Source: Escherichia coli (GTDB lineage: Bacteria > Pseudomonadota > Gammaproteobacteria > Enterobacterales > Enterobacteriaceae). From it: a stretch of DNA of 64,000 bases. Location: the NCBI RefSeq assembly GCF_003334815.1, contig NZ_QOWO01000004.1. One strand, given 5' to 3'. Position numbers and translations under genes: made by a program. Below are positions 4,158 to 4,257 of the stretch, piece by piece (the stretch's first letter is position 1; each line of letters opens with the position of its first letter). The notes under the pieces are model-generated. The model had not been told where the DNA came from. It did not search any database and worked only from the letters and a program-made list of their open reading frames with translations.

Positions 4158-4257
4158 TTTCGATAGGTTCTCAGATGAGAATGATGACGGTGATACACAG
4201 ATAAGAATCAATGAGCAATGAGGGTTGCCGGGCAACCCTCATTGAATAAAACAGGAA

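Follow-up and report, generated by a model that had tools for sequence, protein, structure and literature searches.

Some REP/BIME elements and other dispersed enterobacterial palindromes stabilize the mRNA that lies upstream of them. A canonical intrinsic terminator consists of a G+C-rich stem followed immediately by at least five U in eight nucleotides, and the transcript 3′ end lies about 7–9 nt past the stem, inside the U-tract. Dar and Sorek described in 2018 a further class, that of Rho-dependent transcripts whose steady-state 3′ ends are sharply defined and abut a stable stem-loop (PMC6061677). These stem-loops lack both a U-tract and an upstream A-tract, are followed by a rut-like C-rich sequence and protect the RNA from PNPase and RNase II (PMC6061677).

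We analyzed a palindrome located next to the stop codon of tmaR (yeeX) in a 64,000-nt stretch of Escherichia coli DNA (contig NZ_QOWO01000004.1; hereafter the window). It is probably the 3′-terminal stem-loop of the tmaR mRNA, at which polymerase reads through, Rho ends transcription downstream, exonucleases trim the RNA back and the stem protects the resulting 3′ end. It resembles the stem-loops of Dar and Sorek in being stable, in having the steady-state 3′ end directly past the stem (in K-12), in having no U-tract after it and no A-tract before it, and in the excess of C over G downstream. In K-12 it is also followed by a bicyclomycin-sensitive termination region, which may reflect read-through from tmaR. 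We know of no difference from that class, by analogy with which an exonuclease role is proposed for tmaR. The tmaR stem-loop is an ordinary element of an already described kind, and its 3′ end is already in public data tables.

Position, sequence and fold of the palindrome

The features of the locus are as follows, in window coordinates.

4258–4587, minus strand: tmaR (yeeX) coding sequence, 109 amino acids, DUF496 family, PTS system regulator; stop codon at 4258–4260 (ORF list; RefSeq annotation of identical DNA)
4245–4257, minus strand: U-rich spacer of 13 nt (UUCCUGUUUUAUU on the RNA), from the tmaR stop codon to the stem (sequence)
4216–4244, minus strand: probable 3′-terminal stem-loop of the tmaR mRNA (sequence, fold, covariation, published K-12 3′ ends)
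4231–4244: right arm of the palindrome, GGCAACCCTCATTG
4216–4229: left arm of the palindrome, CAATGAGGGTTGCC
4215, minus strand: position at which the mature tmaR mRNA is predicted to end, one nucleotide beyond the stem, equivalent of K-12 2078989 (Term-seq, PMC7815308, Supplementary file 1)
4136–4214, minus strand: C-rich, G-poor stretch directly 3′ of the stem, candidate rut region with C/G of about 2 (composition; class property, PMC6061677)
3980–4135, minus strand: zone of the most likely Rho end of tmaR transcription, which includes ~4059 (K-12 2078833) (PMC7815308, Supplementary file 2)
3792–4157, plus strand: remnant resembling yoeF, derived from a gene of the EutP/PduV family and facing tmaR in convergent orientation (annotated by RefSeq on identical DNA); context only, outside the working element

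The inverted repeat spans 4216–4244 and comprises two 14-nt arms, 100% complementary, which flank the central G4230. A sequence-only reading of the window had reported a perfect 14-bp palindrome at 4217–4244, between a convergent yoeF-like remnant and yeeX. The palindrome and its setting are as that reading described. It lies 58 nt past the yoeF-like stop codon (4155–4157) and 13 nt from the tmaR stop codon; the start is to be moved one base earlier, to 4216, and the single unpaired central base was missing from the description. Because a 1-nt loop cannot close, the RNA of either strand pairs over 13 bp and leaves a loop of 3 nt, with a folding energy of about −20.5 kcal/mol. Relative to dinucleotide shuffles, the fold of an 83-nt context has z-scores of −4.6 (minus strand) and −3.9 (plus strand). 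Two inverted repeats in the window have perfect arms of 14 nt or more and a loop no longer than 10 nt, whereas 200 second-order Markov simulations gave an expectation of 0.01. The window has no second copy of the palindrome itself at a tolerance of 3 mismatches.

The sequence-only reading had also held that no U-tract follows the hairpin on either strand and that it is not a canonical intrinsic terminator. Both statements agree with our analysis. The stem is present, and the first 8 nt past it contain three T on the tmaR strand (tail CTCATTGA) and a single T on the plus strand (tail AATAAAAC), short of a canonical U-run in both cases. The A-tract before the stem is likewise absent, with 1 A in the preceding 8 nt. 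A consensus promoter and terminator scan called neither a promoter nor a terminator at the palindrome, and its sole terminator-like match fell inside the tmaR coding sequence, at a level expected from shuffles. Farther out, the tmaR-strand tail is moderately U-rich (CUCAUUGAUUCUUAUCU, 9 U in 17 nt), which leaves room for some hairpin-dependent termination.

Like REP/BIME and other dispersed palindromes, the tmaR palindrome is intergenic, lies at a gene 3′ end and would be able to block exonucleases; unlike them, it is found once per genome and once in the window, and belongs to no Rfam family. A scan of positions 3600–5000 against Rfam (E up to 10) matched no family; its two hits, both at chance level (E about 5), were to models of eukaryotic miRNA hairpins and lay far under the gathering scores. 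We rejected a REP/BIME-like identity, which implies many copies, on the basis of the single copy in genome and window.

Other repeats were observed in the window. The second perfect 14-bp inverted repeat occupies 14894–14926 (AAAGCCCCCGGAAGATCACCTTCCGGGGGCTTT followed by T's). The Term-seq table gives an identical sequence for K-12 2090132(+), immediately before the his operon, and the repeat presumably represents the attenuator terminator of hisL. At 10641–10666, within a 352-residue minus-strand ORF (9694–10752), there is also a perfect 12-bp palindrome (TTTTCGCGATAT AC ATATCGCGAAAA); repeats of this size are expected by chance at only 0.07 per window. Next to the tmaR hairpin, a 7-nt tandem direct repeat (CAATGAG CAATGAG) occupies 4209–4222. 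Its second copy forms the base of the hairpin arm and the extra copy allows an alternative 8-bp pairing of 4208–4215 with 4238–4245.

Transcript 3′ ends and Rho-sensitive termination in K-12

An identical hairpin is located at 2078990–2079018 of K-12 MG1655, and the hairpin and its flanks down to about window 3980 are near-identical in the two strains. Coordinates were transferred from K-12 to the window at the 3′ end, where no indels separate them, and the K-12 results would be expected to apply to the window strain. By Term-seq, yeeX has a 3′ end classed as ‘primary’ at 2078989(−) in three of three growth conditions (Adams et al. 2021, PMC7815308, Supplementary file 1), which corresponds to the C directly past the last stem base (+1). 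TRS, a lower-resolution method than Term-seq for 3′ end position, places the primary tmaR terminus at 2078985/6, 4–5 nt past the stem, with the same fold at −21 kcal/mol (PMC10687069). The tmaR 3′ UTR measures 43 nt by Term-seq and 48 nt as listed by TRS. Mapping of the yeeX 3′ end, which the sequence-only reading had proposed as a check, can thus be read from published K-12 data: the dominant end falls at +1, and an independent data set puts it at +4 to +5; both ends fall short of the +7 to +9 of a canonical terminator. The K-12 Term-seq table lists no plus-strand 3′ end near the hairpin, and the SMRT-Cappable-seq supplements hold no entry for the locus.

A K-12 Rho termination region peaks at 2078833(−), with a Rho score of 14.2 (p = 4.5e-50; PMC7815308, Supplementary file 2), 156 nt downstream of the hairpin on the same strand and antisense to yoeF. 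The downstream/upstream coverage at this region is 25/248 without bicyclomycin and 414/290 with it (PMC7815308). The Rho score is computed over 800-nt windows; since downstream coverage exceeds upstream coverage in the presence of bicyclomycin, antisense transcripts starting inside prophage or yoeF DNA, rather than tmaR read-through, may account for part of the signal. A minor minus-strand 3′ end at K-12 2078892, about 97 nt past the hairpin, appears in one TRS data set (PMC10687069) and fits with read-through. It corresponds to window ~4118 and adjoins a small K-12 hairpin (GCCTT...AAGGC) that is not kept in the window strain. On the tmaR strand of the window, the C/G ratio is 2.0–2.1 in the first 80 nt past the stem. 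According to our alignment, the zone at 3980–4135 lies inside the stretch common to E. coli strains, antisense to the yoeF remnant.

We interpret these data as follows. Polymerase transcribing tmaR from the minus strand would read through the hairpin, because there is no U-tract to release the transcript. Rho would load on the C-rich untranslated RNA just 3′ of the stem and end transcription roughly 100–200 nt farther on, antisense to the yoeF remnant, the Rho-sensitive read-through in this case starting from tmaR. We infer that exonucleases then trim the RNA back to the stem, leaving a precise and stable 3′ end 1 nt past it, so that the hairpin would define the mature tmaR 3′ end and shield the message from decay. 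tmaR would then be a clean textbook case of termination by Rho with a protective stem-loop at the end of the message.

In the main alternative, which we consider unlikely, termination would be intrinsic to the hairpin in a non-canonical or factor-assisted (NusA/NusG/Rho-stimulated) form. Most transcripts would then be released a few nucleotides past the stem and their tails nibbled to +1, leaving to Rho only the leak-through. The stem is long and stable and 9 U occur in the following 17 nt, but the RNA continues past the stem with CUC and has just 3 U in the first 8 positions there, so the proximal U-tract that would destabilize the hybrid is missing. The TRS terminus, 4–5 nt past the stem rather than 1, would suit such a terminator, whereas the Term-seq end is at +1 and not at +7 to +9. 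Similarly, coverage in K-12 without bicyclomycin drops about ten-fold across the region, and true intrinsic terminators are found at the same place in other genera; set against this are the very strong Rho-dependent signal just downstream in K-12 and the association of stem-loops without a U-tract or upstream A-tract with Rho-dependent ends (Dar and Sorek, PMC6061677). The intrinsic-terminator explanation and the one based on Rho and trimming are not mutually exclusive.

Conservation, covariation and the strand under selection

The tmaR–hairpin locus was detected in 5413 of 5426 complete E. coli genomes with a 301-nt query around the site. The conservation across strains that had been suggested as a check is high, the exact palindrome being present in 4941 of the 5426 genomes (91%), at a median of 1 and a maximum of 2 places per genome. 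The sampled E. coli variants differ either at the central loop base (LH13-b, MLI023K2) or by one transition in one arm (isolate AJ6); the AJ6 transition yields a G·U pair on the tmaR-sense RNA and an A·C mismatch on the opposite strand. E. coli LH13-b (L086) carries one CAATGAG copy only and the opposite central loop base. Its match (H70), at first taken as a palindrome without the usual flanks, was rejected as such: it is the normal locus matched on the opposite strand, owing to the other central base and the missing 7-nt repeat copy.

Three E. coli strains carry wholly different DNA on the left: IS100 in the window, the CP4-44 prophage in K-12 and cobU-side DNA in HBUT-L. Homology among them starts near window 3980, about 240 bp from the hairpin, and the spacer beside the hairpin holds several substitutions while the 29-nt hairpin holds none. 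The idea that the palindrome marks a prophage or IS junction was rejected, as the strains diverge about 240 bp away.

To compare species, we assembled 80 TmaR-encoding loci, each from a different species genome, 79 of which could be read downstream of tmaR. A strong hairpin is found past the tmaR stop codon in all 79, mostly starting within about 20 nt of the stop codon and whatever the neighboring gene. Enterobacter, Lelliottia and relatives have canonical terminators (A-tract, stem and T-tract) after tmaR, whereas the stems of Escherichia, Citrobacter, Salmonella, Kluyvera and Kosakonia have no U-tract. The E. coli element resembles the Enterobacter and Lelliottia terminators in its post-tmaR position, its similar stem length and energy and the setting of the mRNA 3′ end; it differs from them by the absence of the U-tract and the matching upstream A-tract and by the 3′ end at +1. 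Different genera thus appear to meet the same need after tmaR with different terminator types.

The stem base CAGTGAGG/CCTCACTG is common to the Escherichia hairpin and to those of several Citrobacter and Salmonella species, which differ above the base. In a 14-sequence alignment of these three genera, the ten common pairs are 98.6% paired, as compared to 31–59% when the 3′ partners are slid, and four of the ten have changed on both sides with pairing kept. RNAalifold independently predicts the same stem, with compensatory changes in 6 of 12 pairs. The Escherichia and Salmonella/Citrobacter hairpins are likely homologous rather than convergent, judging from sequence, because those of Escherichia sp. 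E1V33 and C. amalonaticus share 10+10 nt of identity at the same offset.

The asymmetric Escherichia variants point to the strand concerned, as the tmaR-sense hairpin is more stable than its complement in every case (for E. albertii, −16.7 kcal/mol sense and −9.9 complement). In the Escherichia set, a change on one side only produces a G·U pair in tmaR-sense RNA and A·C in its complement. Across genera, 28 of 39 hairpins are more stable as sense RNA and 3 as antisense RNA, a count biased toward the sense strand since the hairpins were picked by sense-strand folding; the differences of 4–8 kcal/mol, which stem from G·U pairs, are unlikely to be an artefact. Covariation and G·U asymmetry fit selection on the tmaR transcript; they do not fit selection acting on the palindrome as DNA or on RNA from the opposite strand. 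The hairpin appears to be selected as RNA, because its arm sequence changes with pairing kept and one-sided changes are tolerated only as tmaR-sense G·U pairs.

These findings separate the two functions that the sequence-only reading had put forward. An RNA stability element is in line with the pairing conserved through compensatory changes and with the K-12 3′ end directly past the stem. A protein-binding site is at odds with arms that change while pairing is kept and with one-sided changes confined to tmaR-sense G·U. More broadly, the palindrome could act at the level of DNA, as a palindromic operator bound by a protein dimer, as a target of recombination or integration, or as one copy of a dispersed palindromic repeat, which we find barely credible. 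It is a perfect 29-bp palindrome, exact in 91% of complete E. coli genomes, that adjoins a region of variable gene content with IS elements or prophage; yet it is present as a single copy per genome, and the strain divergence point lies about 240 bp off, near window 3980, and not at the hairpin. An operator would be conserved between species in sequence rather than in pairing, and here 4 of 10 pairs have changed on both sides; the arm changes with pairing kept and the G·U asymmetry indicate RNA. The tmaR/yeeX papers that we consulted mention no DNA-binding site at the hairpin.

The convergent side and possible further roles

What E. coli retains as yoeF is just the C-terminal third of the gene for a PduV-like microcompartment GTPase, and the yoeF-like remnant of the window shares 47% identity over 57 residues with the C-terminus of Salmonella PduV. 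E. albertii retains a full-length pduV-like gene convergent with tmaR (L009, about 3455–3883). Salmonella and Citrobacter carry pduV–pduW–pduX at the tmaR-convergent position (L048, 3370–5981), pduX being the convergent gene, and its stop codon is overlapped by the 3′ arm of the tmaR hairpin. A nucleotide search of the E. coli interval from yoeF to the hairpin revealed no trace of pduX or pduW.

This arrangement raises the question of whether the hairpin is a two-way element or a relic of the convergent gene, that is, the end of an ancestral pdu-like microcompartment operon (with yoeF as its last gene) kept by inertia in E. coli. We regard this as very improbable. The overlap with the pduX stop codon in Salmonella and Citrobacter and the full-length convergent gene of E. 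albertii would agree with it, as would the perfect palindrome of the window strain, which folds equally well on both strands; on the other side, versions with imperfect arms fold more stably as tmaR-sense RNA, the tail past the stem is A-rich on the plus strand, and K-12 Term-seq shows no plus-strand 3′ end near the hairpin. Moreover, strains in which the yoeF side is decayed or has given way to IS100, CP4-44 or cobU-side DNA keep the hairpin intact. Because the hairpin outlasted the decay or replacement of all yoeF-side DNA, active selection tied to tmaR is indicated, and the locus illustrates how the end of one gene may be kept by selection while the neighboring DNA (pdu-like operon, prophage, IS elements) is replaced.

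Besides protecting the tmaR 3′ end, the stem-loop might serve as a docking site for an RNA chaperone that binds 3′ ends (e.g., ProQ) or as a regulated switch setting TmaR levels. This idea comes from the 29-nt form being near-invariant and perfectly symmetrical in E. coli, and we hold it to be improbable; if true, it would entail effects, via TmaR, on the polar sequestration of PTS Enzyme I and on sugar uptake. A literature search for yeeX together with ProQ returned nothing relevant. RIL-seq and MAPS data have been reported to mark the tmaR (yeeX) mRNA as a putative target of GlnZ, a small RNA derived from a 3′ UTR (bioRxiv 10.1101/2022.04.01.486790).

The tmaR hairpin opens no new question. 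Its practical value is small and consists in a correct 3′ boundary for the tmaR transcript and in accounting for a strong hairpin without a U-tract at this place.

The left flank of the locus, at window ~1900–3701, is an IS100 copy (istA, about 1951–2925; istB, 2919–3701), whose end abuts the yoeF-like remnant. An IS66-family element lies farther left, and both insertions stand where K-12 has the end of the CP4-44 prophage.
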